Shown: one piece after another, positions 6,663 through 64,000 of the stretch
Position numbering within the stretch: the stretch's first letter is position 1
Layout of the letters: each line of letters opens with the position of its first letter
Source: a virus
Taxonomy: Duplodnaviria; Heunggongvirae; Uroviricota; Caudoviricetes
Virus record (IMG/VR): IMGVR_UViG_2693429668_000006
Length of the DNA stretch: 64,000 nt
Reading direction: 5' to 3' (one strand)
Program-made: the position numbers and the translations under genes
Notes under the pieces: generated by a model
Database searches by the model: none
Told to the model about the DNA's origin: nothing
The model's input: the letters and a program-made list of their open reading frames with translations, nothing else

Positions 6663-6664
6663 TC

Positions 6665-7212: not shown

Positions 7213-7217
7213 TAAAT

Positions 7218-7556: not shown

Positions 7557-7678
7557 CACAACGTTGAGGCCACTACCCCGATTGAATGTTTGCCCAACAT
7601 GTTACATATCAACGTTCGCCAGTATCTCTGTGAATAGAACCTTAGAATTGATAAAAATGTAATGGCCTCAACGTTGTG
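7557..7678. repeat. long inverted repeat (15 bp perfect arms, 92 nt loop) on other side of tRNA cluster
   Basis: Arms CACAACGTTGAGGCC (7557..7571) and GGCCTCAACGTTGTG (7664..7678); arm sequence related to element at 6585..6662. Confidence 0.6.
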
Positions 7679-8521: not shown

Positions 8522-8733
8522 TCTAACGCTCCTGATTCTACTAATTGCTGTAGCAATACTTTCCCTTTATCAGTTAACTGGTAGTTGGCCGAGCACCACG
8601 TTTCAGAAACGTTTGCAACCAACCCTAACCGCTCTAACTTAGCCCGCGTTTTAGGCTTCCAGTACTCAGGGAACTCCGGCCACTTACTGATTTCATGAAG
8701 CGTTTCCTTCTCCCGCTTACTTAATACGATCAT
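8518..8733 (-). CDS. hypothetical small protein (71 aa)
   Basis: ORF track; coupled to neighbouring small ORFs. Confidence 0.4.
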   Translation of the reverse strand: MIVLSKREKETLHEISKWPEFPEYWKPKTRAKLERLGLVANVSETWCSANYQLTDKGKVLLQQLVESGALE

Positions 8734-8896
8734 CCTTAATCTCCTTCACTGTGTGGGTTATTTCTACAATGCGATAAATACGACCGCGTCGTTCTATAAC
8801 ACCGCTTTTAATGTAGTCATTGATGCAACTGGACATCACCACAATACCGATTAAAAAACCAACCGCTAAAAATGCAATCATCCAGCCGAGCATCAT
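8717..8896 (-). CDS. small membrane peptide (59 aa), translationally coupled to ligase gene
   Basis: Hand-translated MMLGWMIAFLAVGFLIGIVVMSSCINDY...; start overlaps ligase stop (ATGA); below ORF-track cutoff. Confidence 0.35.
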   Translation of the reverse strand: MMLGWMIAFLAVGFLIGIVVMSSCINDYIKSGVIERRGRIYRIVEITHTVKEIKDDRIK

Positions 8897-10215
8897 TCTT
8901 TATCTCCGATTCGATCTTCTGTATCGCGTAAGCAACGCGGCCATTTCAGTCGTGGGTGGCGTAAGCTGCCGTCCGGTGTTTTCTCGTGACAATGAACCTC
9001 AACAATACGACCACGGTACTTCTCTTTGTTGTTCCAGATCTCGTCCAGATATTTATGCTTAATGCCGCTCGCACGAACAATCACACCGTTTTCAAGGCGA
9101 ATAACAATTTTTCCAAGCGTGTTGGCAAAACCAGAGTCCGGGTCGCCCGACTCAAAGTCGATAATTTCACCATCTTCTGAATCTTCGTCTTTTAACTTCC
9201 ACCAGCTGCGGGTACGTTTAAACTCGTAAACAGAGTTCGGATCTTTGCCCATCTCCCCTTCTTCGTTATCGTCAAGGCGTTTCATGAAGCGTTCGATGAA
9301 GTCTTCGTGGCTATGGATGATATAGAACGGATGCAGGTGAATGTCTTGTGTGTAGCCTTCACTGCGATCGTTTTTGAACAACGCCACGAGAATAGCCAGG
9401 CGCTCTTTCAGCTTCATACCTGTCTTTGCATACTCTTTGGATTTAGCCTGTGCCCGCCATTCCGGTAGGAAGAAGTCGAAAACATGATAAATAGCGCCAA
9501 TTGCCTGCACGTTCTTTTTGCGCAATGCAGATACGGACTGGTTAAATGAACCGGCTGTTCCTTCACCATCGAAGAAGATGTGTTTGTGGCCTGAAAGTTT
9601 GCCTAATTCGAGCATTGCTGGCTTTAGGTGATCGAGAGACGTGATTGGATTACCAGTACGAGAAAGGAAGTTAACCTCTTCCTCGTCAACAATAACCTCG
9701 CAAATTACTCGCAAACCATCGAGCTTAAGACTGCCAATCATCGGCCATTTTGCTTTAGGGTTTGGCTTGAAGGGGTATTTGTCGCCTTTTTCTTTATACG
9801 GTGACGCCAGCTGCACCTCGAATTTCGGAATGGGATTTTCAAAAACCTTGTTGCATAGGCTAATCCCAACACCCGCTTTCGGGTCTTTTAAGAGGAAACG
9901 ACGGAACACGTCCTGCCCATCGGCGCACATTGACGCCACGATAGACTCAACAGCAGCTATTGCTGCGTTCCCCGTCAGCTCGCGAGAGGCCAGCTTATTC
10001 AGTACATCAATGGCTTTTTCGTCACTTGGGACGGACTCACTAAGCGGCTCTGCCACTTTGTATTTCTTTACCCCAAAACGGATGAAAGGGTTGAGCATCA
10101 ATGAAACCATGCTTTGTTCAAAGTCATCCATGTTGGCCAATGCCTCTTTTTTTGCATTGGTTCCCATAGCTTTCATTTCGTCCAGCTTATGCTTAAGTGC
10201 GATCAACTTTTTCAT
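8893..10215 (-). CDS. ATP-dependent DNA ligase
   Basis: Adenylation motif I KLDG in ...GSLKLDGLRVICE...; 440 aa. Confidence 0.75.
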   Translation of the reverse strand: MKKLIALKHKLDEMKAMGTNAKKEALANMDDFEQSMVSLMLNPFIRFGVKKYKVAEPLSESVPSDEKAIDVLNKLASRELTGNAAIAAVESIVASMCADGQDVFRRFLLKDPKAGVGISLCNKVFENPIPKFEVQLASPYKEKGDKYPFKPNPKAKWPMIGSLKLDGLRVICEVIVDEEEVNFLSRTGNPITSLDHLKPAMLELGKLSGHKHIFFDGEGTAGSFNQSVSALRKKNVQAIGAIYHVFDFFLPEWRAQAKSKEYAKTGMKLKERLAILVALFKNDRSEGYTQDIHLHPFYIIHSHEDFIERFMKRLDDNEEGEMGKDPNSVYEFKRTRSWWKLKDEDSEDGEIIDFESGDPDSGFANTLGKIVIRLENGVIVRASGIKHKYLDEIWNNKEKYRGRIVEVHCHEKTPDGSLRHPRLKWPRCLRDTEDRIGDKE

Positions 10216-10682
10216 TGTTGTTTTGCCTCCATATGTTGATCGATTTGCTCATGTGTTTCTTTTGTTGTTTCTTCAATCAACGCCGCATACACGTCAGTGA
10301 TCGCTGTTTGTGATGTGGCGCTCTTCTTAACCATGCTATTAATCATTACACTGTCACGTTTTCGTTTTATAGTTCTGGCTTGTTTATTCCGTTCTTCAAC
10401 CTCCTTAATGAGTGCGGTCATATCTTCGAAATACAGAGATTCTCCTTTACGAATCTCTTCAACCATCATTTTTAACGCCTTGCATTTGCCTGCTTTAATA
10501 GCGGTTGCGCACGACTGGAAAGACGTTCGAGGAAGACGGTTTTCTTTGAAGGCAAGAATGGTGTGCTGGCAAACGGAGTAGCTGCAATATGCCGACTCAC
10601 CGTTTATCTTTACTTCCTCACAACGAAGTGAATAACCGTTATTTCCTGAAATAGAAGGGACTTTTGACAAATCAGCTTTCAC
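10212..10682 (-). CDS. hypothetical protein, Cys-rich N-terminus
   Basis: ORF track; overlaps ligase start by 4 nt. Confidence 0.4.
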   Translation of the reverse strand: MKADLSKVPSISGNNGYSLRCEEVKINGESAYCSYSVCQHTILAFKENRLPRTSFQSCATAIKAGKCKALKMMVEEIRKGESLYFEDMTALIKEVEERNKQARTIKRKRDSVMINSMVKKSATSQTAITDVYAALIEETTKETHEQIDQHMEAKQQ

Positions 10683-10749
10683 AATTACCGCCAGAAATAA
10701 TCTTGTGCTTACCTATCATTATTTGCGTAAAAAACGACACACAGAGAGC

Positions 10750-11532
10750 TTACCAACTTCCCCAGCTAATCATCTTGCGCTGATCGCTTTCTAAGCGATA
10801 GGGGGCAAGAAGCTCTGTGACATGATTGGTGGCGTATGATTTGGCCTCTTGCTCTATCATCGGTAATTCGTTAGCAATCCTGACCATCTTCCCAGCAAAT
10901 TCCGCCATTACGCCATCACACGCCTTACCCGCATCAACAATGATATGCACAAGATCCAACTGGCTTTTGCACATGTCCCAAAGAGTCGAATATTCGCTCT
11001 CCCTGATTAGGTTTACAGCATCATTAGCCCCTTTATTAATCAAAACCTCCAACAGATTTGTCGGGGTGACGAAATCGGCTTTCAGAGACAATGTTGGTTC
11101 AGCTTTTACCGACAGCAAGTAATCTTCAAAGTTTTGCTTGTCTTCCAGCAAAGCTAAACTACGCATAGCTCGAATTGATTCTCGAATAACGGCTTCAATA
11201 TGTTCGTCACCTGGAGGACAGATAATGGTATCTGTATAGATGACTCTGCCATCAAACCACGCCCCAACCTGCACTTTTAGAGTTCGTAAGTTTTCTTTGC
11301 GTACAAAAACAACTAATGCAGAACGTCGTGCATGTGCAGGTTCGCCCCATACGCACAACTTAACCTTCAGATAAGGTAGCCCCGGTAGAGGGATCTCGAC
11401 CAAACGAGTGGCGATATGATCCATTGCCGTATTGACGGCTTTTTCAATGATGTCTAGCCGATTGCTCTCGCTGATTTCTAAACCAGTTTTATCAATGATG
11501 TTGCAGGCTAATCTCTTAATTTCTTCTTTCAT
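10750..11532 (-). CDS. hypothetical protein
   Basis: ORF track, 260 aa, no recognised motif. Confidence 0.45.
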   Translation of the reverse strand: MKEEIKRLACNIIDKTGLEISESNRLDIIEKAVNTAMDHIATRLVEIPLPGLPYLKVKLCVWGEPAHARRSALVVFVRKENLRTLKVQVGAWFDGRVIYTDTIICPPGDEHIEAVIRESIRAMRSLALLEDKQNFEDYLLSVKAEPTLSLKADFVTPTNLLEVLINKGANDAVNLIRESEYSTLWDMCKSQLDLVHIIVDAGKACDGVMAEFAGKMVRIANELPMIEQEAKSYATNHVTELLAPYRLESDQRKMISWGSW

Positions 11533-11657
11533 ACCAACTCCTAGCTAACGGATGAAAGTATTCTTACAAAAACTTAAGTATGTATCTACTTATCATTTTA
11601 GGTGCAATAGTTCTTTATACTAAGATGCCGGGCATATCCTCAGCCCAGCATTCACCT

Positions 11658-12071
11658 TTAATGAGCTACAGCCTCACTGTTGCACATCTTTCTGTAGACC
11701 TGCTTATAACGCTGTAAATCATGAGGATCATTAGGTGCCAACGACTTCGATAGGATTTTGTATACCACCCCTTTTGAAAACATGCCCTTTGGCTTCATTT
11801 CGAGTTCAACAACATATGAGTGATAGCCCACGTATGCACCAAAGCCATTTTTGGCGTTTAATTCACCACACACAAAGCCTGTCACACTCCCATCATCATG
11901 ATCAGTCCTGACAAACTTATCTTTCCTAAACATCACCGACGTGGGATCTTTCATATCATCCGCAATTGCCTGTTGGCCCAGAGTAATAGCCTTCTCGTCT
12001 GTAGGCTTACACCCAACTAATGCAAACAACGACAATAAAGCACCTGTTAAAATCAACTTCTTTTTGCGCAT
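11658..12071 (-). CDS. lipoprotein
   Basis: N-terminus MRKKKLILTGALLSLFALVGC (lipobox LVGC). Confidence 0.55.
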   Translation of the reverse strand: MRKKKLILTGALLSLFALVGCKPTDEKAITLGQQAIADDMKDPTSVMFRKDKFVRTDHDDGSVTGFVCGELNAKNGFGAYVGYHSYVVELEMKPKGMFSKGVVYKILSKSLAPNDPHDLQRYKQVYRKMCNSEAVAH

Positions 12072-17045: not shown

Positions 17046-17104
17046 GACCTGCTTCTGTATATACAAATAATAAGTAACTTATTAAATACATACGGAAGCA
17101 GGTC
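17046..17104. repeat. 59 bp imperfect palindrome with AT-rich core TAATAAGTAACTTATTA
   Basis: Arms GACCTGCTTCTGTAT / ATACGGAAGCAGGTC; related copy at 49164..49218. Confidence 0.55.
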
Positions 17105-22466: not shown

Positions 22467-22669
22467 GTTTTCCTCCGTGAAAAGTCAAATCGGGATGGCG
22501 GATTTATATCACACTTCTCCTTTTAATTGTAGGTATATACTTACCTACCTATACATATACCGTTTAACGGTTGTTCATATTCGCATCTAGTAACTCACTA
22601 ATATATCCCTATGATTGCGGCTGTGAAATCGCATTTTTAAACCACACAGCCATATAAATAATGTCTAAA

Positions 22670-25600
22670 TCAGTTACTTGTTGCCCCAACAGTACCTGCA
22701 AATTTCAGCCATTGACCTGACGGACTTCTATTACTACGGTAGTGATAAACGAGGATTGCGTTTGTAATCCCACCATAGTCAGCTTTGTGTGACGTCGTTA
22801 AACGAATTGTATAATCACCGTTAGGTAGATTAAAAACTTCGATTATAGATTCTGCTAATTCTACAGCACCAAATCCCGTTATATTGTTGATACTGCCAGC
22901 ATTGAATCCCATAGCATCGCCAAAGCCAATCCAATAACTTTTGCTAAACGCCCCATTTGATTTTAGGTGGCTAATGAATGCGGACAAGCTCATGCCCATA
23001 TCCCCACCTGAAACAGAGGAAGTTCGCACAGTCATACTTGGAAGAGCACTGCTCTTCACATAGGAACTTAGAAGGTTTGTTACCTCTGTTTTCGTGTAAG
23101 CATTAAGGTTAGCCGCAGTCAAAGTTATATCGGCAGAGCCATCAAACGCCACACCAGCAATTTTCCTTGCTGTCTGCAATTTTGTGGCGGTTGCGGCATT
23201 ACCAGTAGTGTTCTGGTTCCCATCTGCATTCACACCTGGAATGCTGTCTTTTTTAGTATATATCTGAGTCCAGTCCTCTTCGAACCCATAGCCATCACGT
23301 GATGAACGGTAATACAATCCACCATTTTTATAATGCGCTCGGATTTGGAGAGTCCGACAACTACCTACGCCTATATAAAAATTTGCAACGATATAAGAAT
23401 CCCCGGAGCGTGTAACATTATACGCACCTGATTCGGCATTCCACGGGACCGCACCACTAGCATCGGCATAAGTTCCAGTAGCGCGTCGAGCAAAAGCAGA
23501 TACATTTGCAGCTGTTAGTGTTATATCAGCAGAACCATCAAAAGACACGCCGCTTATTTTTCTAGCAGTTTGCAACTTCGTAGCTGTTGAAGCATTACCG
23601 TTCAAACTACCATTTACGCCACCAGTAACATTTAGTCCATTACCAATGGACACAGCACCGCTGGTATTATTAATTGTAATAGGTCGCAAACCGTTCCATG
23701 AACCTAATGTGTCTCCTGATGCTGTTAGCATGAAATATGTGTTCGATCCATCATTACGGATAAAGAACCCAAAGCTACCGTAAGCAATGCGGAAACCATT
23801 TGCATATTTTGAAACGATCTCACCAGAAGACGTTAATCCGCCAGTTAACGCTCCTCCAGATAGTGGTAAAGCTCCGACATCAGCCGCAGTAGGCTTGTTT
23901 TTAGTGTTATACGCTCTGCGCCATCCTGGTGAATAGCTCGTCCCGTTAAATACATAGATAAACTCCGCATTAGTGAGAGCACCAGAGACACTCGCCGTTG
24001 TGGCCGTTGTTATACGGATCGTATAATTGTTTGAGCTACTACCGTTATTAAATACCTCTATAACAGCTCCTGCTAATGGAATAACGCCACAACCAGTTTC
24101 ACTATTTGGTATGGTTGCACTATTGGCATAGGCCCACGCACATCGAGCAATCCATGACTTTGTGTTAAATGCTCCATTATTTTGCAATAACGTCACTAAC
24201 TGTGCTGTTGTTATTGCTCCGCCATTACTTCCTGTAGTTAACCAACCAGTAGGAGATGCCGGGCAACCTATATTTGCTGGCGACAAGGAAATATTTGCCG
24301 AGCCGTCAAACGACACCCCATTGATAGTACGCGCAGTCTGCAACTTCGTAGCAGTAGCCGCGTTGCCCGTTGTATTCTGATTACCAGTCGTATTAACACC
24401 TGGCAAATTAATATTCGCAGTACCATCAAAGCTCACGCCGCCGATAGTTCTTGCCGTCTGAAGTTTTGTAGCAGTTGCAGCATTACCAGTGGTGTTCTGA
24501 TTACCCGTAGTGTTTACACCTGGAAGGTTAATATTTGCAGAACCGTCGAAAACAACTCCACCGATAGATCTTGCCGTCTGCAATTTCGTGGCTGTACTTG
24601 CATTACCATTCAATGAACCAGTTAATCCACCTGTAACAGACAACGGACCTGAAACTGTTCCTCCGGTTGTTGGCAGTGCTCCAATATCTGATGGTGTAGG
24701 TTTCTGATGTGAGCTATACATCGTATAAACAACACCATCGGTAACGCTGGAAGGCTTACTCGCTGAATATGTTGGCGAGGTATAAATAGAAACTGTCGCA
24801 TTTGCAGTACAATCCCAATGGATATTTACACGAGTCGCATAATTGCCAATCTCAACGTAAATATCATATGTATCGCCGGATGTGTTGATCCAGGCGAAAT
24901 TCGTTAATCCGACAGCTGTACGCTTCCACAAAGCACCTGTAATCCCTTTGGGGTTTCCATTGCCTGCTCGTAGAACCAGTTCTGAAATGCCTGCCTGATG
25001 TGGGGAGCCGACGTTGTAACCAGCGCCACCAATCAATGCGATGTAAACGATGGAACTCGCTTGTGGCATGGTAACCGTAGCCAGTTTGAACCACCCTGCC
25101 CCGCCAGAGAAAGACATCGTTACTGAATTTAAAGTACCAATATCTTTCGGCGTTAATGTGATATCCGCAGTCAGTGCTTTACCGTTAACTTTTCGGTTAG
25201 ATGGCACCCTGCTATTCGCATTGTCATTGGCTGCTTTAACTGCTTTTGGCGTTGCGGCCAGCGATTCACTGGTGCTGTCGACAGCACTGCTAAGTTTCAC
25301 AACACCTTTAGTTGTAAGGCTTGCGTCTTCCATCGCAACTGCACCGGCAATCTCTTCAGCACGATCAGCAGCAGCTTCCGCACGGGTCGCAGCGGATTCA
25401 GCAGCAGTTTTGCTCTGAGATGCTGCCGTCGCACTGCCTGCCGCCTCTGTTGCTTTCGTGGATGCCGTCGTGGCACTGCCCTTCGCTGCTGACGCCTGTC
25501 TGGTCGCCTCATCTTTTGAAGCAGACGCAGATGATGCCGATGACGCCGCCGAACTGGCGGACGATGCGGCAGCCGTTTTTGAGGATTCTGCGCTGGTTTC

Positions 25601-47158: not shown

Positions 47159-48415
47159 CTATCGAGAACCACCAAGAATAACACGGTTTTTGACTGGATA
47201 CCTACGATGTACTGGATAGCCCAATGCGTCTGCACTATGCTCAATGCCACCTGTCTTATCCATATCTCGTGTTCCAGGCTTGTAGATGACTTTTTCCAGT
47301 GAATCAATCAAATGCTTGCACTTCGGATCGATATACAGCCGGATATCTCCAGATGCGGTCATCAGCATTCGGTTAACAGCATTAACACGATCCGCAATTG
47401 GCGGGTGCTTTTTCGAATAATCGACACGTAAGAATCCCTTCTCTTTGAATATGTCGACGTCAGACTCCCCGCGAGCATGTTGGCGATAAGCACCTGCCGG
47501 ATCTGGAAATACCGTTATCTGTGATTTCCAGCGCCAGAAGCGTCTCTCAAGCTCATCACAAACCTCTGCCGTGTTAGAGGAAAAGAGCACCAATTCATCA
47601 ATTGCCCATAGCTCACCATTTGGCTGAGGTTGCAAAATTACTGAAGACATCGGGTCAATGTTGAAGTCCTGCCCTACCCATATAGGCAACCGAGGGTTGA
47701 ACTGAAGCGGTTTTACATGCACGTTACGATCGAACGGGTAGTAAACGCGCCCGGACATGTTCTCAAAGCTCGCCAGGTACTCCTGAGCGAACGATTTCGG
47801 GTCCATATCGTTCTTAGCAGCTTCAATTTCCGCCGTAGGTACAAACGGAGAATCGGCAGTTACAAACTGCCAGCTCTTCCACTGTCCCTTTCTTTGCAGC
47901 TCTACGTTCTGGCCTATAGTCCACAGTTTGTGAAATTCCGAGAAGCCTTTTGGCGTACCAATGATCAGTGCACCGCCGCGTGTCGATGAAAGAGTAGGTC
48001 GTAACACCTTGTACCAGGTGTCAGCCTTCATATCCTGAAATTCATCAAGCACTACAAAATGCAACGCTACGCCGCGCAGAGTGTCAGGCTTATCAGCACC
48101 TTTGAGGGCGATCTCCGAACCGTTCTTCAACACGATTGTCATCGTGGTGTCGTTCTTTTTCCTAACCCACTTACGAGGCAGAACTTCCTGTAGATCGTCC
48201 CACAAAATCTGGCGAGCCATCTGGTAAGTAGGAGCGACATACCAGACTCTTTGCTTTTTTTCCTTTGCCGCCGCACGAATAATAGTGGAGATCGACAACC
48301 GGGATTTTCCCCAGCGTCGACCAGCACAAACAACTTTAAATCGATGCGGAGACTGGAAGACTTTCATCTGTCCAGAATGCAGTTGCACAAGACTGAGCGA
48401 GGACGGGATTGCCAT
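47159..48415 (-). CDS. terminase large subunit
   Basis: Walker A VVCAGRRWGKS, Walker B-like HFVVLDEF, C-terminal nuclease-like region. Confidence 0.75.
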   Translation of the reverse strand: MAIPSSLSLVQLHSGQMKVFQSPHRFKVVCAGRRWGKSRLSISTIIRAAAKEKKQRVWYVAPTYQMARQILWDDLQEVLPRKWVRKKNDTTMTIVLKNGSEIALKGADKPDTLRGVALHFVVLDEFQDMKADTWYKVLRPTLSSTRGGALIIGTPKGFSEFHKLWTIGQNVELQRKGQWKSWQFVTADSPFVPTAEIEAAKNDMDPKSFAQEYLASFENMSGRVYYPFDRNVHVKPLQFNPRLPIWVGQDFNIDPMSSVILQPQPNGELWAIDELVLFSSNTAEVCDELERRFWRWKSQITVFPDPAGAYRQHARGESDVDIFKEKGFLRVDYSKKHPPIADRVNAVNRMLMTASGDIRLYIDPKCKHLIDSLEKVIYKPGTRDMDKTGGIEHSADALGYPVHRRYPVKNRVILGGSR

Positions 48416-49047
48416 TATTCGTCCTCCCCTTCACTTCCATCATCTGTCGCATCAAATTCGCTTAGAGCTTCTTCTTCCAACGTCTCAAGCAATTCGTCAT
48501 CGATGATTTCAGGCTCGTCGTCTTCCTGACGTAATTTCGCCACCTGGGAAGGCGTAAGCTCACCAAATACCAGGTTCGGAATTTCTTCCTCGTCATTTTC
48601 CGCATGATCCATGCCCAATGCTTTGGACGAAACTTCAAAGCATTTTGCAAGGGTATTACTGGCTCTCTGTAAGCTCTTGAGAGAATCCTCAATCGCCCCT
48701 AAAGGCTTACCCTCACGTTTGGCCGTAGTGACTTCGACCATCACCATCTGCCCCAACGCATACGCCCAGCCGTCATAACGTGTACGACGTTCTTCTATCT
48801 TTTCCGCACGGGCTTTAGCGCGAAGCTCTGCGTCAGATTTAAGAGACTCACGAACCATCTTCCCAACAGAGTCCGCGCCTTTCTCTAATCCTCGCTTTTT
48901 GAAATGTCTGGAGAGTGTTTCACGACGAATGCCGTACTCTTCCTCCAGCTTTGAGAGTGTATATTCGCCTGACGTCCATTTGGCTTCAGCTTCGGCCCAC
49001 TCCGCTGGTGTCAGGCGAGTTTTTACCTCGTCTTTTTCGACCGTCAT
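48415..49047 (-). CDS. terminase small subunit (putative)
   Basis: 210 aa, N-terminal HTH-like region, acidic C-terminus; start/stop overlap with large terminase. Confidence 0.5.
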   Translation of the reverse strand: MTVEKDEVKTRLTPAEWAEAEAKWTSGEYTLSKLEEEYGIRRETLSRHFKKRGLEKGADSVGKMVRESLKSDAELRAKARAEKIEERRTRYDGWAYALGQMVMVEVTTAKREGKPLGAIEDSLKSLQRASNTLAKCFEVSSKALGMDHAENDEEEIPNLVFGELTPSQVAKLRQEDDEPEIIDDELLETLEEEALSEFDATDDGSEGEDE

Positions 49048-49086
49048 AGATCCCTCTAAAACACACAGAGCGCGTCCATGCGCTCT

Positions 49087-49127
49087 AAAACAACTTGTTT
49101 ACTGCATCTGCTAACCAACTTGTTTTC
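49087..49127. promoter_or_regulatory. two operator-like palindromes (AAAACAACTTGTTT and AACCAACTTGTTTT) upstream of terminase genes
   Basis: Recurring AACAAnTTGTT motif. Confidence 0.4.
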
Positions 49128-49163
49128 TGGGGTGTTTAATTAGGTCTGGCATGTCTTACGAAG

Positions 49164-49218
49164 CCTGCTTCCGTATATATTTAATAAGTTACTTATTATT
49201 TATATATACAGATGCAGG
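49164..49218. repeat. 55 bp imperfect palindrome, related to 17046..17104 element
   Basis: Arms CCTGCTTCCGTATATAT / ATATATACAGATGCAGG around core TAATAAGTTACTTATTA. Confidence 0.5.
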
Positions 49219-49242
49219 TCTTTAAATAAGCTCCCAGACCGA

Positions 49243-49509
49243 TTACATCACCAGTAACTTCGCTTTGGCTCGACCTAAAGTGGTTAACCCAAGAGTCCGG
49301 CGGTGATAGCGATTGTCACTGCGTTGGCGCGTATGCCCTTTCTCCACCAGCCCCTTTTTTATCAGAGCGCGAATTGAGAACTGGATACTTTGCTTGGTTG
49401 TCTTGTACGGCAAAACTTCAAGCAATTCGTCCAGGTCAAGTAGATGACCTCGCTCATAACCGAGATTGAGCGTTTTGATGATGTCCTTTTGTTTGTCGGT
49501 TAACGTCAT
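49243..49509 (-). CDS. small winged-helix-like DNA-binding protein (putative)
   Basis: 88 aa, basic; tentative. Confidence 0.35.
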   Translation of the reverse strand: MTLTDKQKDIIKTLNLGYERGHLLDLDELLEVLPYKTTKQSIQFSIRALIKKGLVEKGHTRQRSDNRYHRRTLGLTTLGRAKAKLLVM

Positions 49510-49518
49510 GGCAAATCC

Positions 49519-50409
49519 TTATGCCGGTAAAGCAATTTCTAACGGTTTATCCAAAGGTTGTTTGTCGAATGCCAGCAGTGGCAGCGTGTCAGGCAGTCGA
49601 CGGCCAAAGTCAGGGTTTCGGTACACACCATACAACGGAGACGTAAAGCTCAGGTTGTGAATGTCCTTGAGCAGCTTCACAATGCTGGCCTCGTCCACCA
49701 GACTGTCGGCAATGTCCTGAATCGTCGTGCCACGATTCCGCCCAGCTTTTGCCAGGGAACTGTTCTTATGGTAGTCCGCCACCAAATCGCGCAGCGCACG
49801 GCGACGACGAGACTCGCTCATAGCGAACAACTCTTTGACGATCGCCTCGTTATCACCCGGGTCGGAGCGGAAATGGCGCTGGAACACACGCAGTGCACTT
49901 TCATAGCTCTTCGGTCGCTCAGGGCGGATGAACTTAAACCCTGCTTTCATGGCGAAGGGATTGTATTTGCTCATCGAGGACTGGATCTCAATGATTGGCC
50001 GGTCATGCATCCTGCTAACCAGGTTAATCATTCTATAAGAGACGCCTACGCCACGATACTGAGTATCCACAACTGAGCGACTGATCACCGCAAAGTTGTT
50101 ATTCACGTACCGACCCCAGTACTGGTTAGCCACGGTGGTATTAGTGGTTGGTTTCAACTTAGGAAACATGCGGTGGCGAGGTGCCAACAGTAGTTTCGGG
50201 TAAGCCATAACCACGACGCCCACCAGACGGTCATCAAGTTCGCAGCGATAGTAAGTTGGCGCGAAAGGTTTGCCGTCTGTTTTGTAGTGAAGCGACTTAA
50301 GAGCGTGCCAGTCCTCTACAGTTCCCTTTGTAACAGTCATTCGCTCCAGAAAGTCCAGATGACGCGGAAACTCTTCAGGGCGGTAGCGTTTAATGATGAT
50401 GTCCGTCAT
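49519..50409 (-). CDS. GNAT-fold acetyltransferase-like protein
   Basis: Motif A-like VVDTQYRGVGVSYRMINL (Q-x-x-G-x-G); 296 aa; start overlaps stop of ABC ATPase gene. Confidence 0.5.
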   Translation of the reverse strand: MTDIIIKRYRPEEFPRHLDFLERMTVTKGTVEDWHALKSLHYKTDGKPFAPTYYRCELDDRLVGVVVMAYPKLLLAPRHRMFPKLKPTTNTTVANQYWGRYVNNNFAVISRSVVDTQYRGVGVSYRMINLVSRMHDRPIIEIQSSMSKYNPFAMKAGFKFIRPERPKSYESALRVFQRHFRSDPGDNEAIVKELFAMSESRRRRALRDLVADYHKNSSLAKAGRNRGTTIQDIADSLVDEASIVKLLKDIHNLSFTSPLYGVYRNPDFGRRLPDTLPLLAFDKQPLDKPLEIALPA

Positions 50410-51071
50410 GAATGGACCTCATCATGACTACCATTGTGATATTCCACCTTCACGCGTTCTTTGTAGTGCTTGGTGATCTGCATATCAGGGCGCAGCGCGT
50501 TCTTCAGGTCTTCGTGAGTCGTCGCCACCATTACCGTCGCACCAACCTTTCGAGCGGCACGCTGGAGGTTAGACGCCACAACCTGAGCGGTTACACGGTC
50601 GAGAACAGCGCCGAACTCGTCAGCAGCCCATACTTTAGCGCCTGACTCAATCAGTTTGGCAATCTTGAGACGATATTTCTGGCCGTCTGACATTTCAGAA
50701 GGCTTGCGAACAAACAGATATGCATCGTTCAGACCAGCCATAGATAACAACCCAAGCGCATCACTGGTCGTTTTGCCCAACTGATCGATGACGTTAACCT
50801 CATTATCGAAGGTAAAATCATCGATGGAGGCTACAGACAGCCCTTCATCCTTCATCTGTCGTTGCAACTCGCGCAGCACAACGGATTTGCCGGAACCGGA
50901 TTGGCCGGTGATGTACACCACATCGCCCTGCTTCACTTCCAGCTCCAGATTGTCGTAAAGCGTCCACTCTTTTTCGTCCAGGCCAAGCCCGAACGACTCA
51001 GCGATTTCCAACGTGCGCGTGGTTTTATTTACGCGTGTCTGAAACGATACGTTGATGATGTATTTGCTCAT
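50406..51071 (-). CDS. ABC-type ATPase (soluble, single nucleotide-binding domain)
   Basis: Walker A GQSGSGKS, signature MSDGQKYRL, Walker B KVWAADEF, H-loop VATTHE. Confidence 0.65.
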   Translation of the reverse strand: MSKYIINVSFQTRVNKTTRTLEIAESFGLGLDEKEWTLYDNLELEVKQGDVVYITGQSGSGKSVVLRELQRQMKDEGLSVASIDDFTFDNEVNVIDQLGKTTSDALGLLSMAGLNDAYLFVRKPSEMSDGQKYRLKIAKLIESGAKVWAADEFGAVLDRVTAQVVASNLQRAARKVGATVMVATTHEDLKNALRPDMQITKHYKERVKVEYHNGSHDEVHS

Positions 51072-51736
51072 GCAGCCATCTCCCCGGAAGAGATCTTCTC
51101 CGCATATGCCACAAATGCGTCTACCCCGCTTTCTCCCGTCATTTCTTCCATATGGGCAAGCAAATCACCAACAACAATGGCAGAGCCAGCAGGGAGCGTT
51201 TTAAAGCCCAATACGTCGACAACACGTACTTCTTCCGCTGCAACTTCACGACTGATCTCGGTGTGTTCATCCTTCTGTCGTTTAGTTTCTTCGCCAAGAT
51301 CGATAACTAGCGAGTCGGTGTCCATTTCTTCTGTCATACTGCCAACGAGAACATTCAACTCACGCTCTTCAAAGCCGAAAACCTCGATATCGTCCAGAAC
51401 AAGCGACTCAAGCTCTTTCTGTAGCTTAATTGCATCGTAATCAATGCTGGCAAGTCGGTTATCTTCAAGGCGCTTCGCACGAACCTCGTCATCACTGAGA
51501 TCATCGCGAACAATAACCGGTACGCGCTCAAGTCCAGCAAAAATTGCAGCCTCACGGCGGCCGTGGCCAGTAATAATTACGTCGTTCTTATCGACCGTAA
51601 TTGGCTGGTCAAATCCGCGCTTTTTAATGGCTGCGGCTAGATCTCGGATCTGCTGTTCATCATGCTTTTTGGCATTCATCTCATAGGGAATAAGATCTGC
51701 CGGGTCGCGATATACGATTTCAAACTTTTTGGTCAT
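51068..51736 (-). CDS. ParB-like nuclease domain protein
   Basis: ParB/Srx motif ITGHGRREAA; acidic C-terminus; start set at ATG 51736 overlapping upstream stop. Confidence 0.55.
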   Translation of the reverse strand: MTKKFEIVYRDPADLIPYEMNAKKHDEQQIRDLAAAIKKRGFDQPITVDKNDVIITGHGRREAAIFAGLERVPVIVRDDLSDDEVRAKRLEDNRLASIDYDAIKLQKELESLVLDDIEVFGFEERELNVLVGSMTEEMDTDSLVIDLGEETKRQKDEHTEISREVAAEEVRVVDVLGFKTLPAGSAIVVGDLLAHMEEMTGESGVDAFVAYAEKISSGEMAA

Positions 51737-52434
51737 TACATACGCTCCTTGTAGTAGTCGACCAGCCACACCAGAGCCTCACCAGCGTTCTCCATTTCAT
51801 TACCGGTGTTAATAGCCTGCTCTTTGATGATGTTTTTTATGGTTTCTGCAACACGATCTGACGCATCGAAAGTTACTTTGAAGCGCATGGTCTGATGTTC
51901 CGCACCCACACGTTCGGTTTTCTCTCGTTTGTCGGTATCGACAGGCTCATCACTACCACGAGACAACGCCTCCAGTGCTTCAAGGTCGATTGCCGCCTCT
52001 TTTGCTAAAACCATCGAGATTTCGTCGTCATACGGAGCGATTTCAGACAGTTGATAGTCAAGTTCTGACTGAATTTCTTCAATGAAGCGTTGCAATGCGA
52101 TTTGGTCGTCTTCACCGTATCGCTCGTTGTCCACCAGTGACATCTGTTTAGCTACGACATCGCTAATTTTGCCCACAGAAAGCACCGGAACCGTTGAAAT
52201 TCCTTGCTCAATAGCAGCACGCCAGCGATGTTCGCCGCCGAGGATTTCAAAAAATCCATCTTCAAGTTCACGAGCCAAAATTGGCTTAAAAAAGCCCAAT
52301 TTTTCGATAGAACCTTTCAGTTTTTCAAAATTCTGCGCACCAACCGAATTGGTGTTCCAGGTATTCGGGCGAAGGTTGGCAACATCAACCTGCAAAATCG
52401 TGATTTTTACATCCATTTTATTGCTACAATCCAC
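51736..52434 (-). CDS. ParB-like nuclease domain protein (second copy)
   Basis: ParB/Srx motif ILGGEHRWRAA. Confidence 0.55.
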   Translation of the reverse strand: MDCSNKMDVKITILQVDVANLRPNTWNTNSVGAQNFEKLKGSIEKLGFFKPILARELEDGFFEILGGEHRWRAAIEQGISTVPVLSVGKISDVVAKQMSLVDNERYGEDDQIALQRFIEEIQSELDYQLSEIAPYDDEISMVLAKEAAIDLEALEALSRGSDEPVDTDKREKTERVGAEHQTMRFKVTFDASDRVAETIKNIIKEQAINTGNEMENAGEALVWLVDYYKERM

Positions 52435-52498
52435 TAAGTAATCACTTACTTATTATAATAGCCAAATAACATACAAAAGGCACTAAGGAAAGAGGTTT

Positions 52499-54058
52499 AT
52501 GACTGTTCGGATTGTATCTAACGCAGTAAATGCGCTTATTTCTGGCGCAGATGACAAGGTAAAGCAACTGGTGCAGCAAATGTTGAGCTACGAAGTCGAG
52601 ACTGGCGACTGGAAGGGCACAAGCACGATGTTCAACTGGAGTAAAAACTCGTTCCCTGCTGGCTTTGCCAAGCCTGTAGCGGCGAACTTGAACAAGGCGG
52701 GCATCAAATGTGTTCATATCCGCAAAGACAAAGCCCCGGCGCTTGGTAAACCAAATCCTGCGGTTAACCCATTCCCATACAATCCTGATTATGCGTATCA
52801 GGATCAGACTGTGGAAACACTGGTTCGAGAGGGAATGATGATTGCGCAGATCGCTACTGGTGGCGGGAAATCTAACGTTGCCTGCAAAGCAGCTGCACGT
52901 ATCGGTCGAATGACATTATTTTTAACAACCCGCTCTGTTCTGATGTTTCAAATGGCCGAAAACTTCCAGAGATCCATCGACTACCGCGCCGAAAATGGCG
53001 AACCGTGGTTAAAAGACCAAAAGGTTGGAGTCATTGGCTCGGGTGAGTTCCAGGTATCACGACATATCAACGTCGCTACAGTTCAAACTCTTGCAAGTTT
53101 CCTCGAAGAACCACCACGCGATGCAACACCAGATAAGAAAAGCTACCACCTCAAACGTCGGGAGTTGGTGAAACGCTTCCTTTCAAGTGTCTCTCTTCTT
53201 ATTCTGGAAGAGGCGCATGAGTCTTCAGGCTCAAATTTCTATGACATCGCCAGATTATGTGTGAACGCAGACTATCGTCTGGCGCTTACAGCCACGCCGT
53301 TCATGAAGGATTCGACGGAAGCCAACATGCGCCTGATGGCGGTGGCCGGGCGAATTGAAATTAAAGTCACAGAAAAGTACCTGATTGATCGAGGCATTCT
53401 GGCAAAGCCGTACTTCCTTTATCATAAAGTTGCCTACAAGCCAGACGAGGCCAGAATCAAGGCCGAACTTGCCAACAAACACCTCAATTTTAGAGTTGGT
53501 ATGAGCACCGCCTACCAAAAGGCTTATCAGTTGGGGATCGTGTATAATTTGGGACGTAACGAGGCCATAGTGCGCGAGGCATTGCTTTATAAGCAACATT
53601 CACTCAACTGCATGACTCTGGTTCGTCTTAAACGCCACGGGCAAATCCTGATGGAGATGATGAAGGAGTCAGGTCTTAAAGTTGATTTCATCTATGGGGA
53701 ATCTAACCAGACGACAAGGCAAGCAAAGCTGAATAGTTTAGCGTCTGGTGAAATAGATGTTTTAATAGGCTCGACTATTCTGGATGTTGGTGTTGATGTG
53801 CCAAGCGTTGGTGCGGTCATTCTTGCTGGTGGTGGGAAAGCAGAAGTTGAAATGAGACAGCGTGTCGGTCGTGGCTTACGAGCCAAAAAAAATCAGGCAA
53901 ACGTGTGTTTTATCACCGATTTCATTGACATTAGCAACAAATACCTGTTGTCTCACTCTTATGAGCGAAAACACATCATCGACACCACACCTGGCTTTGC
54001 AGAAGGTGTATTGCCTATTGATGGAGCATTCGATTTTGGAGTTCTGAAACGAGATTAG
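52499..54058 (+). CDS. SF2 (DEAH-type) DNA/RNA helicase
   Basis: Walker A ATGGGKS, DEAH-like LILEEAHE, motif III TATPF, motif VI QRVGRGLR. Confidence 0.7.
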   Translation: MTVRIVSNAVNALISGADDKVKQLVQQMLSYEVETGDWKGTSTMFNWSKNSFPAGFAKPVAANLNKAGIKCVHIRKDKAPALGKPNPAVNPFPYNPDYAYQDQTVETLVREGMMIAQIATGGGKSNVACKAAARIGRMTLFLTTRSVLMFQMAENFQRSIDYRAENGEPWLKDQKVGVIGSGEFQVSRHINVATVQTLASFLEEPPRDATPDKKSYHLKRRELVKRFLSSVSLLILEEAHESSGSNFYDIARLCVNADYRLALTATPFMKDSTEANMRLMAVAGRIEIKVTEKYLIDRGILAKPYFLYHKVAYKPDEARIKAELANKHLNFRVGMSTAYQKAYQLGIVYNLGRNEAIVREALLYKQHSLNCMTLVRLKRHGQILMEMMKESGLKVDFIYGESNQTTRQAKLNSLASGEIDVLIGSTILDVGVDVPSVGAVILAGGGKAEVEMRQRVGRGLRAKKNQANVCFITDFIDISNKYLLSHSYERKHIIDTTPGFAEGVLPIDGAFDFGVLKRD

Positions 54059-54060
54059 TT

Positions 54061-54339
54061 ATGAGTGAAAAGAAAACAACTTACTGTCAGGTAGCATTGT
54101 CTGATAAGGCCAATGACAAACTTGGAAAGTTTCAAGTGAAACTAAAAGAAAAAAATATCAAAATGTCTAAGGCTGAAGTCATAAATACCATTCTGGAACA
54201 ATTGACAATGGCCGACTTTGACAAGGTTATATCTTCTGTCGGGGCTTCCGCTAAGACTCGTGAGAAAATCATGCGTATCTATGAGAACTCTAATATGACA
54301 AAGGAAGATCTCGAAACGCTATTAAGCAGATTAAAATAA
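54061..54339 (+). CDS. hypothetical small protein
   Basis: ORF track, 92 aa. Confidence 0.4.
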   Translation: MSEKKTTYCQVALSDKANDKLGKFQVKLKEKNIKMSKAEVINTILEQLTMADFDKVISSVGASAKTREKIMRIYENSNMTKEDLETLLSRLK

Positions 54340-54365: not shown

Positions 54366-54830
54366 ATGAAGTCTCCCATACTGTTCACTTTCTGTTCTAA
54401 AACTATCATGAAATACTCGCTTCTCCCTCTACTAACGTTACCAGTGTTGATGCTTGCCGCGTGCCAATCACACCCAATATCAATCCATGACGCCAAACCA
54501 GCACCGCAGGCCAAAGTGTTAAAGTATCAAAGCGCAGCGCCAGCTACGTTGGTGGTAATGAGAGACACAGGTTTTGTAGGAGCTGGATGTGATGCTTCCA
54601 TTTTCATCAACGGCGAAACTGTCGCAAAACTGGCTACAGGCGAAAAAGCGACTTTCCATTTAAATGCCGGAGAATTAATTGTGGGTGCATCTCTTGAAGG
54701 TGCAGGTTTATGTGCTCTAAACCCCGCTCGTCAAGAGCGAGAAACGACTCTGAAGAATGGAGACACAAAAGCGTTCAGGGTGTTTACCAGCAATTCTGGT
54801 GACATCGACATTCTGCCAACAACTCTGTGA
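54366..54830 (+). CDS. lipoprotein
   Basis: Signal peptide with lipobox LMLAAC. Confidence 0.5.
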   Translation: MKSPILFTFCSKTIMKYSLLPLLTLPVLMLAACQSHPISIHDAKPAPQAKVLKYQSAAPATLVVMRDTGFVGAGCDASIFINGETVAKLATGEKATFHLNAGELIVGASLEGAGLCALNPARQERETTLKNGDTKAFRVFTSNSGDIDILPTTL

Positions 54831-54834
54831 TGAC

Positions 54835-55359
54835 ATGACAACCAAAGATATTACCTACGGTATCCAAGCTGAACTCTGGCCGCGAGATTACACTAACGTT
54901 GAAAAACTACTGATGTTCTGGCGCAGAGAACAAATTCCTGTAAGGGTCACTCTCGAAGATGGCCAGGCGTTTTGCATGTACGTTTATGGCCTCATGCCAT
55001 CTCGTAACAAAGTTGACCTTTGCCCAGCCCCTTTTGACAAAGAAAATCGTATAAGGCTCCCACTTGAACGCATTAGTACAATTGAATCAGGTGTGGTTGA
55101 CAGTATCGCTCACGATTTCAAAGGTCGACTAACAGTTCACCCTGATTATGTCGATAATCGGCCATCACGCCGCGATTTTTTTGCAATTTGCAACCAAGCC
55201 TACAAAGCAAACAAATCTATAAGGGTGTACATGGCGGATGGCCGTGAAATTGAGGGGGTGTCAGCAGGCGCAGATGCTTGTCAGGTTACACTACGTGTCG
55301 AGAACGGTAGAAAAATAGTTGTTTTGTTCGATTGGGTTGAACGAATTTTGCCTTTTTGA
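54835..55359 (+). CDS. hypothetical protein; start uncertain
   Basis: ORF track (54757 start overlaps previous gene); internal ATG at 54835. Confidence 0.4.
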   Translation: MTTKDITYGIQAELWPRDYTNVEKLLMFWRREQIPVRVTLEDGQAFCMYVYGLMPSRNKVDLCPAPFDKENRIRLPLERISTIESGVVDSIAHDFKGRLTVHPDYVDNRPSRRDFFAICNQAYKANKSIRVYMADGREIEGVSAGADACQVTLRVENGRKIVVLFDWVERILPF

Positions 55360-62861: not shown

Positions 62862-64000
62862 TTACTTAACCTGGTGGCCAGGTTTAGCACCAGCATCCGG
62901 GCTTAACAGGAAGATATCTTTCCCACCGGGGCCAGCAGCCATCACCATACCTTCGGAGATACCGAAGCGCATTTTACGCGGAGCCAGGTTAGCCACCATA
63001 ATGGTGTGACGACCAATCAGTGCCTGTGGGTCTGGATAAGCAGAACGGATGCCTGAGAAGACATTGCGTTTTTCACCACCTAGATCCAGCGTCAGACGCA
63101 GCAGTTTGTCAGAGCCTTCAACAAACTCCGCGTTTTCAATCAGCGCCACGCGCAGGTCAACTTTGGCGAAGTCATCAAAGGTGATGGTTTCCTGAATCGG
63201 ATCGTCTGCCAGCGGGCCAGTAACTGGCGCGGCAGTGGCTTTCACTTCTTCTTTAGAGGCTTCCACCAGTGCTTCAACCTGCTTCATGTCGATGCGGTTA
63301 TACAGTGCTTTGAACGGATTAACTTTGTGCGCCAGCAGCGGTTGCTGGATACCATCCCAGGTCAGTTCTGTATTCAGGAATGCTTCTGCACGTTCAGTCA
63401 GTTTCGGCAGTACCGGCTTCAGGTACGTCATCAGCACGCGGAACAGGTTAATGCCCATAGAGCAAATCGCCTGCAGATCGGCATCGCGTCCTTCCTGCTT
63501 CGCCACCACCCACGGAGCCTGTTCATCGACATAGCGGTTAGCCAGGTCAGCCAATGCCATGATTTCACGGATAGCTTTACCAAATTCGCGGCTTTCCCAT
63601 GCTTCGCCAATCACTTCAGCGGCATCAGTAAAGGTTTTGTACAGTTGCGGGTCAGCCAGTTCGCTTGCCAGCACGCCGTCAAAACGCTTGTTGATAAAGC
63701 CTGCATTACGGGAGGCCAGGTTAACCACTTTGTTCACGATATCGGCATTCACGCGCTGAACGAAATCCTCCAGGTTGAGATCGATATCATCAATGCGCGA
63801 AGAGAGTTTCGCAGTGTAGTAGTAACGCAGGCTGTCAGCGTCAAAATGATTCAGCCAGGTGCTGGCTTTAATAAAGGTGCCGCGAGACTTGGACATCTTT
63901 GCGCCGTTCACCGTCACATAGCCATGAACAAACAGGTTGGTCGGCTTGCGGAAGTTGCTGCCTTCCAGCATGGCAGGCCAGAACAGGCTGTGGAAGTAAA
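62862..64000 (-). CDS. metG: methionyl-tRNA synthetase, C-terminal part (5' end beyond window)
   Basis: Translation ends ...[23 protein letters not shown] and matches the enterobacterial MetG anticodon-binding and C-terminal tRNA-binding domains. Confidence 0.9.

Follow-up and report, generated by a model that had tools for sequence, protein, structure and literature searches.

TmcA and NAT10 join a P-loop ATPase to a GNAT domain and carry out the ATP- and acetyl-CoA-dependent N4-acetylation of cytidine in RNA, and Dnd phosphorothioation employs a ParB-like regulator, DndB, together with an SMC-like ABC ATPase, DndD. In phage Mu, the GNAT-fold enzyme Mom glycylates N6-adenine in double-stranded DNA using Gly-tRNA (PMC13219725). 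Phage ParB-like proteins also occur as partners of DNA-modifying enzymes: ParB-methyltransferase fusions provide a precedent (PMC5512222), and clade E 5mYOX TET/JBP-type thymine dioxygenases, which modify DNA once it has been replicated, have an obligatory ParB-like partner, a short protein encoded beside them, and lie on contigs that often hold terminases (O'Toole et al., bioRxiv 10.1101/2025.08.14.668559). Here we analyze a five-gene operon (positions 49243-52434) in a 64,000-nucleotide stretch of viral DNA (IMG/VR record IMGVR_UViG_2693429668_000006, Caudoviricetes; the whole stretch is referred to as the window), which encodes two ParB-like proteins (ParB1 and ParB2), an ABC ATPase, a GNAT-fold protein and a small winged-helix protein. 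The new point is that the ABC and GNAT genes are the split form of a fused, COG2401-type ABC-GNAT protein, which with ParB makes up a common, mis-annotated and functionally uncharacterized viral cassette. By sequence comparison the window is an SSU5-like phage-plasmid; the operon region is 99.1% identical to Escherichia phage Cyrano (pLF82, from E. coli LF82), 85% identical to Salmonella phage SSU5 and approximately 80% identical to Klebsiella relatives.

The ATPase, at 221 amino acids, is a complete ABC nucleotide-binding domain (Pfam ABC_tran, 5.8e-13; phrog_293, 6e-59), with Walker A (GQSGSGKS), signature (MSDGQ), Walker B/catalytic (VWAADE), D-loop (LDR) and H-loop (TTHED) motifs all present. 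The GNAT protein matches phrog_886 at 1e-164 and has the alpha/beta fold of the GNAT class, with a core at residues approximately 20-165, a clade-typical helical segment at approximately 169-254, and C-terminal strands. Its motif Q-Y-R-G-V-G sits within DTQYRGVGVSYR, and in the corresponding motif A loop (Q-Y-R-G-V-G-V-S) residues R119 and G122 are invariant across 44 homologues. Searches of NCBIfam, PADLOC, PDB sequences and PDB profiles gave no match to this protein, and its helical segment, modelled alone, yielded a usable model with no significant structural neighbour and no detected fold resembling a helix-turn-helix.

In unrelated phages these two domains form one polypeptide of about 360-400 amino acids, as in Leptospira LE4 gp15, Gordonia Shatter gp2, Rhodococcus/Gordonia Jace gp86, Arthrobacter EastWest gp75, Nonlabens P12024S gp24 and Aeromonas PX29 gp85; source databases name such homologues 'ABC-type ATPase with predicted acetyltransferase domain' (JGI/COG2401-type). 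The concatenated ABC and GNAT proteins of the window align end to end with at least six of the fused proteins, with all catalytic motifs kept, and the shared motifs comprise Walker A, LSxGxxxR, DEFxxVxDR, the H-loop, (D)W...HY and R-x-V-V-x-x-x-Y-x-G-x-G. A hidden Markov model (HMM) built only from fused proteins matches the window ABC protein at 8e-27 and the GNAT protein at 2e-7, and hhalign gave 8.9e-5. The fused proteins carry Y/F-Q-G-L/M-G as the equivalent of the motif A loop, and the loop that binds the pyrophosphate of coenzyme A (CoA), Q/R-x-x-G-x-G, is kept in split and fused forms alike. Given the end-to-end alignment, the shared motifs and the matches of the fused-only HMM to both genes, we conclude from sequence that the window encodes a split form of the fused, COG2401-type ABC-GNAT enzyme. 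Lactococcus phage P335 is split likewise, with Orf23 (ParB), Orf24 (ABC) and Orf25 (GNAT) followed by the small and large terminase subunits (TerS and TerL). At the split point, SSU5, nickie, RHEph10 and an Ectothiorhodospira prophage carry one to three small unrelated open reading frames (ORFs), which include DUF2829, Phage_gp49_66 and RyR-domain proteins (positions in Table 1), and the window carries none; this site seems to be an insertion hotspot for small genes.

The initial homologue searches with ABC and ParB1, and a first scan of IMG/VR with GNAT, returned close relatives alone among the matches listed. Scanning IMG/VR with an alignment of the fused proteins gave at least 595 confirmed stretches, from which 80 loci were kept (39-65% identical to Jace gp86), and a scan of bacterial genomes, one per species, likewise gave at least 595 confirmed stretches, with 80 loci examined. 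A ParB-like ORF, located in the viral loci by an iterated ParB HMM, lies on the same strand as ABC-GNAT in 80/80 viral loci and is present in 77/80 bacterial-genome loci, proportions that are indicative, both samples being biased in that they are the best matches to a single query. By a strict rule this ORF is directly upstream of ABC-GNAT in 62/80 viral loci, and in 11 of the other 14 it is also directly upstream, with an overlap that exceeds the 60-nucleotide tolerance owing to longest-ORF calling; in the bacterial genomes it is directly upstream in 64 loci. LE4, Shatter, Jace, EastWest and P335 all have a ParB-like gene directly upstream of ABC(-GNAT). TerL follows downstream on the same strand in 51/80 viral and 40/80 bacterial-genome loci, typically 300-500 nucleotides away in the viral ones, with one TerS-like gene, from several unrelated families, in between. 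The bacterial loci span Actinomycetota, Planctomycetota, Proteobacteria, Acidobacteriota, Bacteroidota, Bacillota and Nitrospinota.

The functional core of the cassette is ParB, ABC and GNAT. The preliminary description of this locus rightly treated the five genes as a tightly coupled unit, but the combination is no peculiarity of this element: ABC and GNAT are here the two-gene version of a fused ABC-GNAT gene that is very widespread and that a ParB-like gene nearly always precedes. Its view that the combination matches no described system stands up, in that neither the profile libraries searched nor the searchable literature assigns the genes to a known partition, packaging or defence system. 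The genes are also co-conserved, and neither of the two outcomes that it named as refuting was observed. We found no description of the cassette in the searchable literature, including work on COG2401 and on ParB/GNAT/ATPase/terminase topics, no paper that characterizes the COG2401-type family (for which the 'ABC transporter' label in PHROG and GenBank is misleading), and no discussion of this gene set in the Nickievirus paper. As candidates for a third cassette component we rejected P335 Orf26, LE4 gp13, EastWest gp73 and PX29 gp84/gp86, for which no relationship to ParB or to the proteins of the window was seen. Enterococcus phage 9184 was rejected as a cassette member, its ABC ATPase being accompanied by neither GNAT nor ParB; this stand-alone related ATPase (ORF025, 4932-5576 in the extract) lies between two ORFs annotated as DNA polymerase, a further instance of a polymerase-ABC association. 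A further gene labelled 'ABC transporter ATP-binding protein', CYRAN_75 (214 amino acids; Cyrano OV696614, 74621-75265, beyond the window), stands amid ThyX, polynucleotide kinase and dihydrofolate reductase genes in the published gene table.

A profile search with the GNAT alignment recovered 900 representative clusters at E ≤ 1e-3, many of which are proteins of 440-560 amino acids with an N-terminal ABC domain and the long GNAT form of the window. Nitrososphaerota archaea are among the carriers, and in a Nitrososphaerota (thaumarchaeal) tailed-virus region there is an overlap of 8 nucleotides between the fused gene and the 3' end of TerL (Terminase_6N; 4416-7455 of the extract). Elsewhere the fused gene lies amid genes for class II ribonucleotide reductase, a clamp loader, an Mre11-like protein and family-B DNA polymerase (PolB), or amid DnaB, a DHH (RecJ-like) protein, ClpP, RNase H and GyrB. 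One protein of 1260 amino acids, encoded within a phage replication module and present on at least 24 contigs, joins a family-B DNA polymerase (exonuclease and polymerase domains) to ABC-GNAT (8001-11783 of the extract). One form (847 amino acids) contains an intein (Hint plus LAGLIDADG) within the ABC domain, and one Nitrososphaerota form (665 amino acids) has a C-terminal TFIIB repeat. ParB was not found within approximately 6 kb of the archaeal and replication-module fused loci that we examined, and because some fused forms therefore have no ParB nearby, ParB is not indispensable. The invariant unit is ABC-GNAT, which in bacterial siphoviruses is usually accompanied by ParB and whose neighbours are always genes of DNA replication or packaging.

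Both ParB-like proteins of the window match Pfam ParB_N (PF02195; ParB1 3.3e-13, ParB2 1.3e-8) and align with the N-terminal domains of Spo0J, ParB and Noc structures, and public records call such proteins 'chromosome partitioning protein ParB'. Their scores against TIGR00180 (the ParB/RepB/Spo0J partition family), 43.3 and 43.1 bits, are under the curated cut-off of 58.45. ParB1 belongs to phrog_723 (2e-79), a family that also includes the ParB proteins accompanying the fused enzyme in Jace, Shatter and EastWest, and carries the GERRxRA-like box GGEHRWRAA; the box of ParB2, TGHGRREAA, is degenerate. ParB2 matches phrog_930 (1e-112), the N-terminus of phrog_498 'DNA methyltransferase' (1.7e-31) and the N-terminus of PADLOC MTase_II (2.9e-17), and outside its own phage clade its tblastn matches are mainly the N-termini of annotated DNA methylases; it is of the ParB type that occurs fused to phage DNA methyltransferases. 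Only 8/80 viral loci have two ParB-like ORFs; the second ParB, which lies outside the functional core, is characteristic of the SSU5/Nickievirus/RHEph10 clade.

Neighbouring genes offer clues to the acyl donor. In Jace, gp87-gp88, directly after ABC-GNAT, encode the aspartate 1-decarboxylase PanD (2e-33) and a truncated family-III CoA-transferase-like protein (7601-8712 of the extract); the same pair follows ABC-GNAT in three further viral loci (for example, 3478-4516 of one extract) and occurs in one bacterial-genome locus, and Gordonia phage Shatter has a formyltransferase-domain gene in the PanD position (1805-2452 of the extract). A route from aspartate through beta-alanine and beta-alanyl-CoA to transfer by the GNAT domain would account for the Jace gene trio. 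The conserved CoA loop, together with the PanD, CoA-transferase-like and formyltransferase neighbours, argues that the GNAT protein is an active acyl-CoA-dependent transferase, and, by analogy with phage DNA hypermodification clusters, suggests that the acyl group may differ by lineage. The window also encodes the C-terminal part of a methionyl-tRNA synthetase (MetRS; tRNA-synt_1g, Anticodon_3 and tRNA_bind, 62862-63971, minus strand), which Cyrano annotates in full (CYRAN_100); a MetRS carried by the phage-plasmid may be relevant since Mom-type GNATs take charged tRNA as donor.

The layout of the locus is given in Table 1. All five minus-strand ORFs are present at the positions that the preliminary description gave, their translations contain the motifs that it named (ILGGEHRWRAA, ITGHGRREAA and Q-Y-R-G-V-G), and its domain calls (ParB, ABC, GNAT and winged helix) hold in Pfam, PHROG and family-profile searches. 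All five proteins have full-length PHROG matches (phrog_723, phrog_930, phrog_293, phrog_886 and phrog_900), and the domain assignments are far above chance level. The tight coupling that it reported is borne out by the junctions read from the sequence, which are TAATG between ParB1 and ParB2 (a one-nucleotide overlap), an ATGA overlap at both ParB2/ABC and ABC/GNAT, and a 9-nucleotide spacer before the 88-amino-acid gene. The order relative to the small terminase was also described correctly, yet 'immediately upstream' is not quite accurate, as a 195-nucleotide AT-rich gap with a hairpin and a palindrome intervenes; because this gap holds a terminator-like hairpin and a long palindrome, the five genes are probably their own transcription unit. 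A sigma-70 scan found no convincing operon promoter. The start of ParB1 is likely the ATG at 52416, as in Cyrano record CYRAN_119.

Table 1. Features of the operon and its surroundings (window coordinates, except for the split-point inserts, which are given in locus-extract coordinates)
Feature	Coordinates	Strand	Remarks
ParB1	51736..52434	-	232 aa from GTG at 52434; 226 aa from ATG at 52416
ParB2	51068..51736	-	222 aa from ATG; mechanical ORF reaches GTG at 51769
ABC-type ATPase	50406..51071	-	221 aa; N-terminal half of split ABC-GNAT
GNAT-fold acyltransferase (predicted)	49519..50409	-	296 aa; C-terminal half of split ABC-GNAT
MarR-like winged-helix protein	49243..49509	-	88 aa
AT-rich intergenic gap	49048..49242		195 nt; terminator-like hairpin and long palindrome
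Probable TerS (context only, outside cassette)	48415..49047	-	phrog_867, 2e-100; stop overlaps TerL start
TerL (context)	47159..48415	-	Pfam Terminase_6N 3e-9, Terminase_6C; PHROG terminase large subunit
Divergent intergenic region, ParB1/helicase	52435..52498		degenerate AATAAGTNACTTATT palindrome copy at 52440-52454
DEAD/ResIII (UvsW-like) helicase (context, divergent)	52499..54058	+	Pfam ResIII, DEAD, Helicase_C
AATAAGTNACTTATT copy	17069-17083		
AATAAGTNACTTATT copy	22668-22682		
AATAAGTNACTTATT copy	49183-49197		
AATAAGTNACTTATT copy	52440-52454		
Split-point insert, SSU5	1235-1489		
Split-point insert, nickie	6591-6926		
Split-point insert, RHEph10	5667-6169		
Split-point insert, Ectothiorhodospira	7961-8999		

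In the window the portal gene follows TerL, and a clade of siphoviruses of approximately 105-120 kb keeps the same order (divergent helicase, ParB, ParB, ABC, up to three small variable ORFs, GNAT, a gene of about 90 amino acids, a TerS-like gene of about 210 amino acids, TerL and portal). This order is present in SSU5, Pseudomonas Nickievirus, Rhizobium RHEph10-like phages, Stenotrophomonas ANB28 and Xanthomonas JGB6, and likewise in an Ectothiorhodospira genome and a 3.3-Mb metagenomic contig, both within prophage-like regions, and protein identity in these is just 41-44% or so; taken alone, synteny within the clade could reflect inheritance. The gene product that we call probable TerS is named 'Terminase small subunit' in the Cyrano record and is co-conserved with TerL across the clade. 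The 88-amino-acid protein (phrog_900, 2e-45) has a family profile that matches MarR ST1710 in the PDB at E = 0.002, with further MarR/RosR matches, and shows weak winged helix-turn-helix (wHTH) matches to LexA_DNA_bind, Sta1 and Lrs14; it is a probable DNA-binding regulator or packaging-site factor. Its gene and the window-type TerS of 210 amino acids co-occur in five fused-ABC-GNAT loci, and the gene is missing where other TerS families are used; because of this co-occurrence and its absence from other lineages, it belongs with this TerS/TerL set, or with regulation at the adjacent palindrome, and not with the cassette.

The gap upstream of TerS contains a terminator-like hairpin at 49087..49066 (minus strand) and a composite palindrome of approximately 55 nucleotides (49164-49218) centred on AATAAGTTACTTATT. 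The AT-rich palindrome AATAAGTNACTTATT has four copies in the window at two mismatches or fewer, against 0.37 expected, and none of 100 shuffles reached four. Every copy lies 5' of a minus-strand transcription unit, including the ParB operon and the TerS/TerL operon, and those at 17069 and 49183 lie in a longer common palindrome (GACCTGCwTCyGTATrTAT...ATATATACrGAAGCAGGyC); the SSU5 and Cyrano GenBank records are linearized exactly at the 49183 copy. The palindrome may serve as an operator or as a late-promoter element, to which the 88-amino-acid wHTH protein might bind, or as a hairpin signal. No parS-like repeat array was found in 48300-54200, just this dispersed palindrome with its four copies in the window.

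Our leading reading, which we hold tentatively, is that the operon encodes a ParB-guided, ATP-driven acyl-CoA transferase that acts, before packaging, either on phage DNA after its replication or on a target bound to that DNA. The module would act in the lytic cycle, with a core formed by the ABC ATPase and GNAT together with ParB/Srx-type DNA-binding, NTP-binding proteins. The ParB-like proteins would bind phage DNA and recruit or activate ABC-GNAT, ATP-dependent dimerization of the ABC domains would clamp the enzyme onto its substrate, and the GNAT domain would then move an acyl group from acyl-CoA to an amino group on the replicated DNA or the DNA-held target before that DNA is packaged. 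The donor would normally be acetyl-CoA, with beta-alanyl-CoA conceivable in the Jace-like lineage via the PanD and CoA-transferase-like genes, and the likely benefit would be to shield the phage genome against host nucleases. What the analysis shows is the identity of the domains, the intact catalytic motifs, the relationship of split to fused forms, the linkage to ParB and to terminase or replication genes, the silence in lysogeny and the dispensability for related terminases; we infer that DNA is the target, that acyl-CoA is the donor, that ParB recruits the enzyme and that the benefit is anti-restriction. The stronger claim, that ParB and ABC-GNAT together constitute a new and widespread ATP-dependent DNA acylation (hypermodification) system of bacterial and archaeal tailed viruses, is one that we consider doubtful; as part of the same doubtful claim, ParB would load the enzyme onto replicated DNA, and the enzyme would place acetyl or, in some lineages, beta-alanyl or other acyl groups on bases; the resulting acylated bases would be a new class, giving protection from restriction and possibly a packaging gate.

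Several observations weigh against acylation of DNA or of a DNA-bound target. The ABC domain is likest the nucleotide-binding domains of transporters and ABC-F-type proteins and not those of the SMC, Rad50 and MutS classes; at the level of the fold, the GNAT protein matches Mom no better than it matches protein, polyamine and antibiotic acetyltransferases; and no modified base has been reported for any cassette-carrying phage. The archaeal and replication-module copies without a nearby ParB, and the biased sampling behind the ParB counts, belong on the same side. So does the adjacency to terminase, which is strikingly consistent: the position directly 5' of TerS/TerL (51/80 and 40/80) and the thaumarchaeal TerL overlap fit a packaging role equally well.

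The same adjacency makes a packaging or DNA-maturation accessory, in which the ParB-like protein and ABC-GNAT work with terminase, the first rival to be weighed. Such an accessory might mark or clear the concatemer near pac/cos, acetylate TerS, portal or DNA-bound host proteins, or contribute ParB-type nicking, comparable with HNH proteins that accompany HK97-type terminases. The same-strand TerL often lies only 300-500 nucleotides downstream, LE4, Shatter, P335 and the window share the arrangement, TerL and the fused gene of the Nitrososphaerota virus overlap as described above, and ParB-domain proteins are able to nick DNA (review, PMC5512222). Against this stand the pairing of the cassette with several unrelated TerS families, its occurrence in replication modules remote from terminase or in fusion with PolB, and the fact that GNAT is part of no known packaging system. 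The slot just before terS is, moreover, a common site of phage DNA methyltransferases. Phages with related terminases also manage without the module: Ralstonia Raharianne and DSL-LC06, checked directly, have TerL proteins 39-45% identical to that of the window and neither ParB nor ABC-GNAT near terminase, and Vibrio breoganii phages with the same TerL type were not among the ABC and GNAT search matches. We regard this rival as unlikely. The public ParB partition names, the ParB_N domains and the maintenance of the element as a plasmid in lysogeny (PMC9928086) would fit a phage-plasmid partition system with two ParB-like centromere binders and an ABC motor, a reading that is effectively refuted and to which we give almost no credence. 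The lysogen transcriptome of LF82 gives values of 5.0-9.5 for CYRAN_119-123, where the prophage median is 9.8 and the cut-off for morons is 49, and the ParA/MinD-like gene CYRAN_99, elsewhere in the element, reads 91.7 (PMC9928086, S1 Table); the five genes are thus silent in the Cyrano lysogen, at or below background in the plasmid state, in keeping with a lytic function. Both ParB-like proteins also fall under the TIGR00180 cut-off, the neighbouring ATPase is of the ABC type and not the ParA type, and many carriers of the cassette are integrated prophages or phages that give no indication of living as plasmids. Since lysogeny leaves the genes silent and related terminases work without the module, partition and obligatory packaging roles are both unlikely.

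If the target were instead a protein, the enzyme could be an acetyltransferase for host takeover or anti-defence that acts on a protein of host or phage, such as a nucleoid protein, a replisome component or a nuclease (compare AcrVA5 on Cas12a), with ParB as a DNA tether or a separate nuclease. The fold-level resemblance to protein acetyltransferases accommodates this, but a requirement for ParB in almost every copy from bacterial viruses, and for an ABC ATPase in every copy, would be atypical of such enzymes, the unusual donor supply implied by PanD and the CoA-transferase-like protein is likelier for hypermodification chemistry, and no PADLOC or anti-defence family matches; we consider it quite improbable. 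More improbable still is acylation of a small molecule or nucleotide (DNA-condensing polyamines or an aminated nucleotide precursor) or a TmcA/NAT10-like acetylation of RNA or tRNA. Polyamine and diamine acetyltransferases are among the structural neighbours of the GNAT protein (5ix3 and 5k9n), the elements bear tRNA genes or MetRS, and the cassette lies in nucleotide-metabolism neighbourhoods in some viruses, with the combination of ATPase and GNAT paralleling TmcA; the ParB association and the PolB fusion, however, favour DNA over free metabolites or tRNA, the ATPase is of the ABC class and not the RecD-like helicase module of TmcA, and a tRNA-binding domain is absent. The probability left over from the leading reading and these four rivals belongs to something that we have not considered. 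The preliminary description had offered a DNA-modification or anti-defence module or a packaging accessory; of these candidate functions, the evidence points more to DNA modification, or to some action on DNA, than to an obligatory part in packaging.

Three assignments based on the individual domains were rejected. The label of ABC transporter used by PHROG and GenBank reflects nucleotide-binding domain motifs that are indeed present, yet the ATPase is fused to GNAT in most relatives; in the inspected neighbourhoods of the cassette we saw no permease family (no dedicated transmembrane prediction was made), the operon partners being ParB_N, GNAT and wHTH proteins. GNAT toxin-antitoxin pairs of the TacT/AtaT/KacT type combine a toxin of about 160-180 amino acids with a ribbon-helix-helix or wHTH antitoxin that is usually upstream, whereas this GNAT protein has 296 amino acids and is half of an ABC-GNAT, and the wHTH gene, here on the downstream side, shows no co-conservation with the cassette. 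For a known defence system, PADLOC yields only partial matches at the level of the P-loop or the ParB domain.

The cassette is common (at least 595 IMG/VR stretches and at least 595 in species-representative bacterial genomes) and spread across Proteobacteria, Actinomycetota, Planctomycetota, Bacillota, Bacteroidota, Spirochaetes and archaeal viruses, and its carriers include clinically relevant SSU5-like phage-plasmids of E. coli, Klebsiella and Salmonella; the database labels 'partition protein' and 'ABC transporter' mask it. Were DNA acylation confirmed, ABC-GNAT would be a new enzyme class and the second kind of GNAT to act on DNA after Mom, and the cassette would be a further ParB-assisted DNA modifier beside the ParB-methylase fusions and the ParB-dependent dioxygenases; new modified bases would be probable, with a bearing on how phages evade restriction, on artefacts in sequencing and on phage engineering. 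Should its role lie instead in packaging or in the control of the replisome, it would represent a conserved, undescribed step in the maturation of virion DNA.

Two other features of the window may be recorded here. The gene at 54757-55359 (plus strand) matches Flag1_repress at 2.5e-84 (an FljA-like repressor of phase-1 flagellin), and its product is a probable moron affecting host flagellar phase variation. A low-GC island at 4001-6000 (GC content 0.336, compared with approximately 0.45-0.50 elsewhere) holds an ORF of 442 amino acids (4237-5565, plus strand) with no Pfam match, adjoined by an integrase-family gene (2538-3641, minus strand); the ORF is possibly an acquired accessory or defence gene.

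Set beside described systems, the operon shares parts with several. With ParABS it has in common the ParB_N domain and a partly kept GERRxRA box; unlike ParABS, it has no adjacent ParA in the window, its ParB scores are below the cut-offs, it is not expressed in the plasmid state and it is found in non-plasmid phages. The combination of a ParB/Srx-fold protein with an ABC-class ATPase is a feature of Dnd as a DNA-modification system, but the window set has no cysteine desulfurase, PAPS-reductase-like protein or DndE, its PADLOC match to Dnd is confined to the P-loop, and the chemistry is different. Mom is a stand-alone dimer with a charged tRNA as donor and neither ATPase nor ParB, whereas the window GNAT keeps the classical CoA-pyrophosphate loop; searches of Pfam, PHROG and PDB sequences gave no Mom-related match, including the context of the essential residues R111 and S124. 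TmcA/NAT10 resembles the operon in coupling an ATPase to a GNAT domain, and there acylates a nucleobase within a polymer, although its ATPase is helicase-like, its substrate is tRNA or rRNA and it has no ParB partner. In the ParB-DNA methyltransferase fusions of temperate phages (phrog_498, for example, B. cereus Bce_0392), the N-terminal ParB is close to ParB2 and to the partners in other lineages; it is joined covalently to an S-adenosylmethionine-dependent methyltransferase there, whereas the window ParB is separate and lies beside a predicted acyltransferase. As with 5mYOX, a short ParB-like gene adjoins the catalytic gene in the window and in the sampled loci, but the partner is ABC-GNAT and not an Fe(II)/2-oxoglutarate dioxygenase, and the dioxygenase system has no ATPase. 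The closest correspondence is to the COG2401-type fused ABC-acetyltransferases (annotation prototype MK0520; PHROGs 293, 886 and 11143), which have the same domains, in the same order and with the same specific motifs, in a single chain that in the window is divided between two genes joined by an ATGA overlap.

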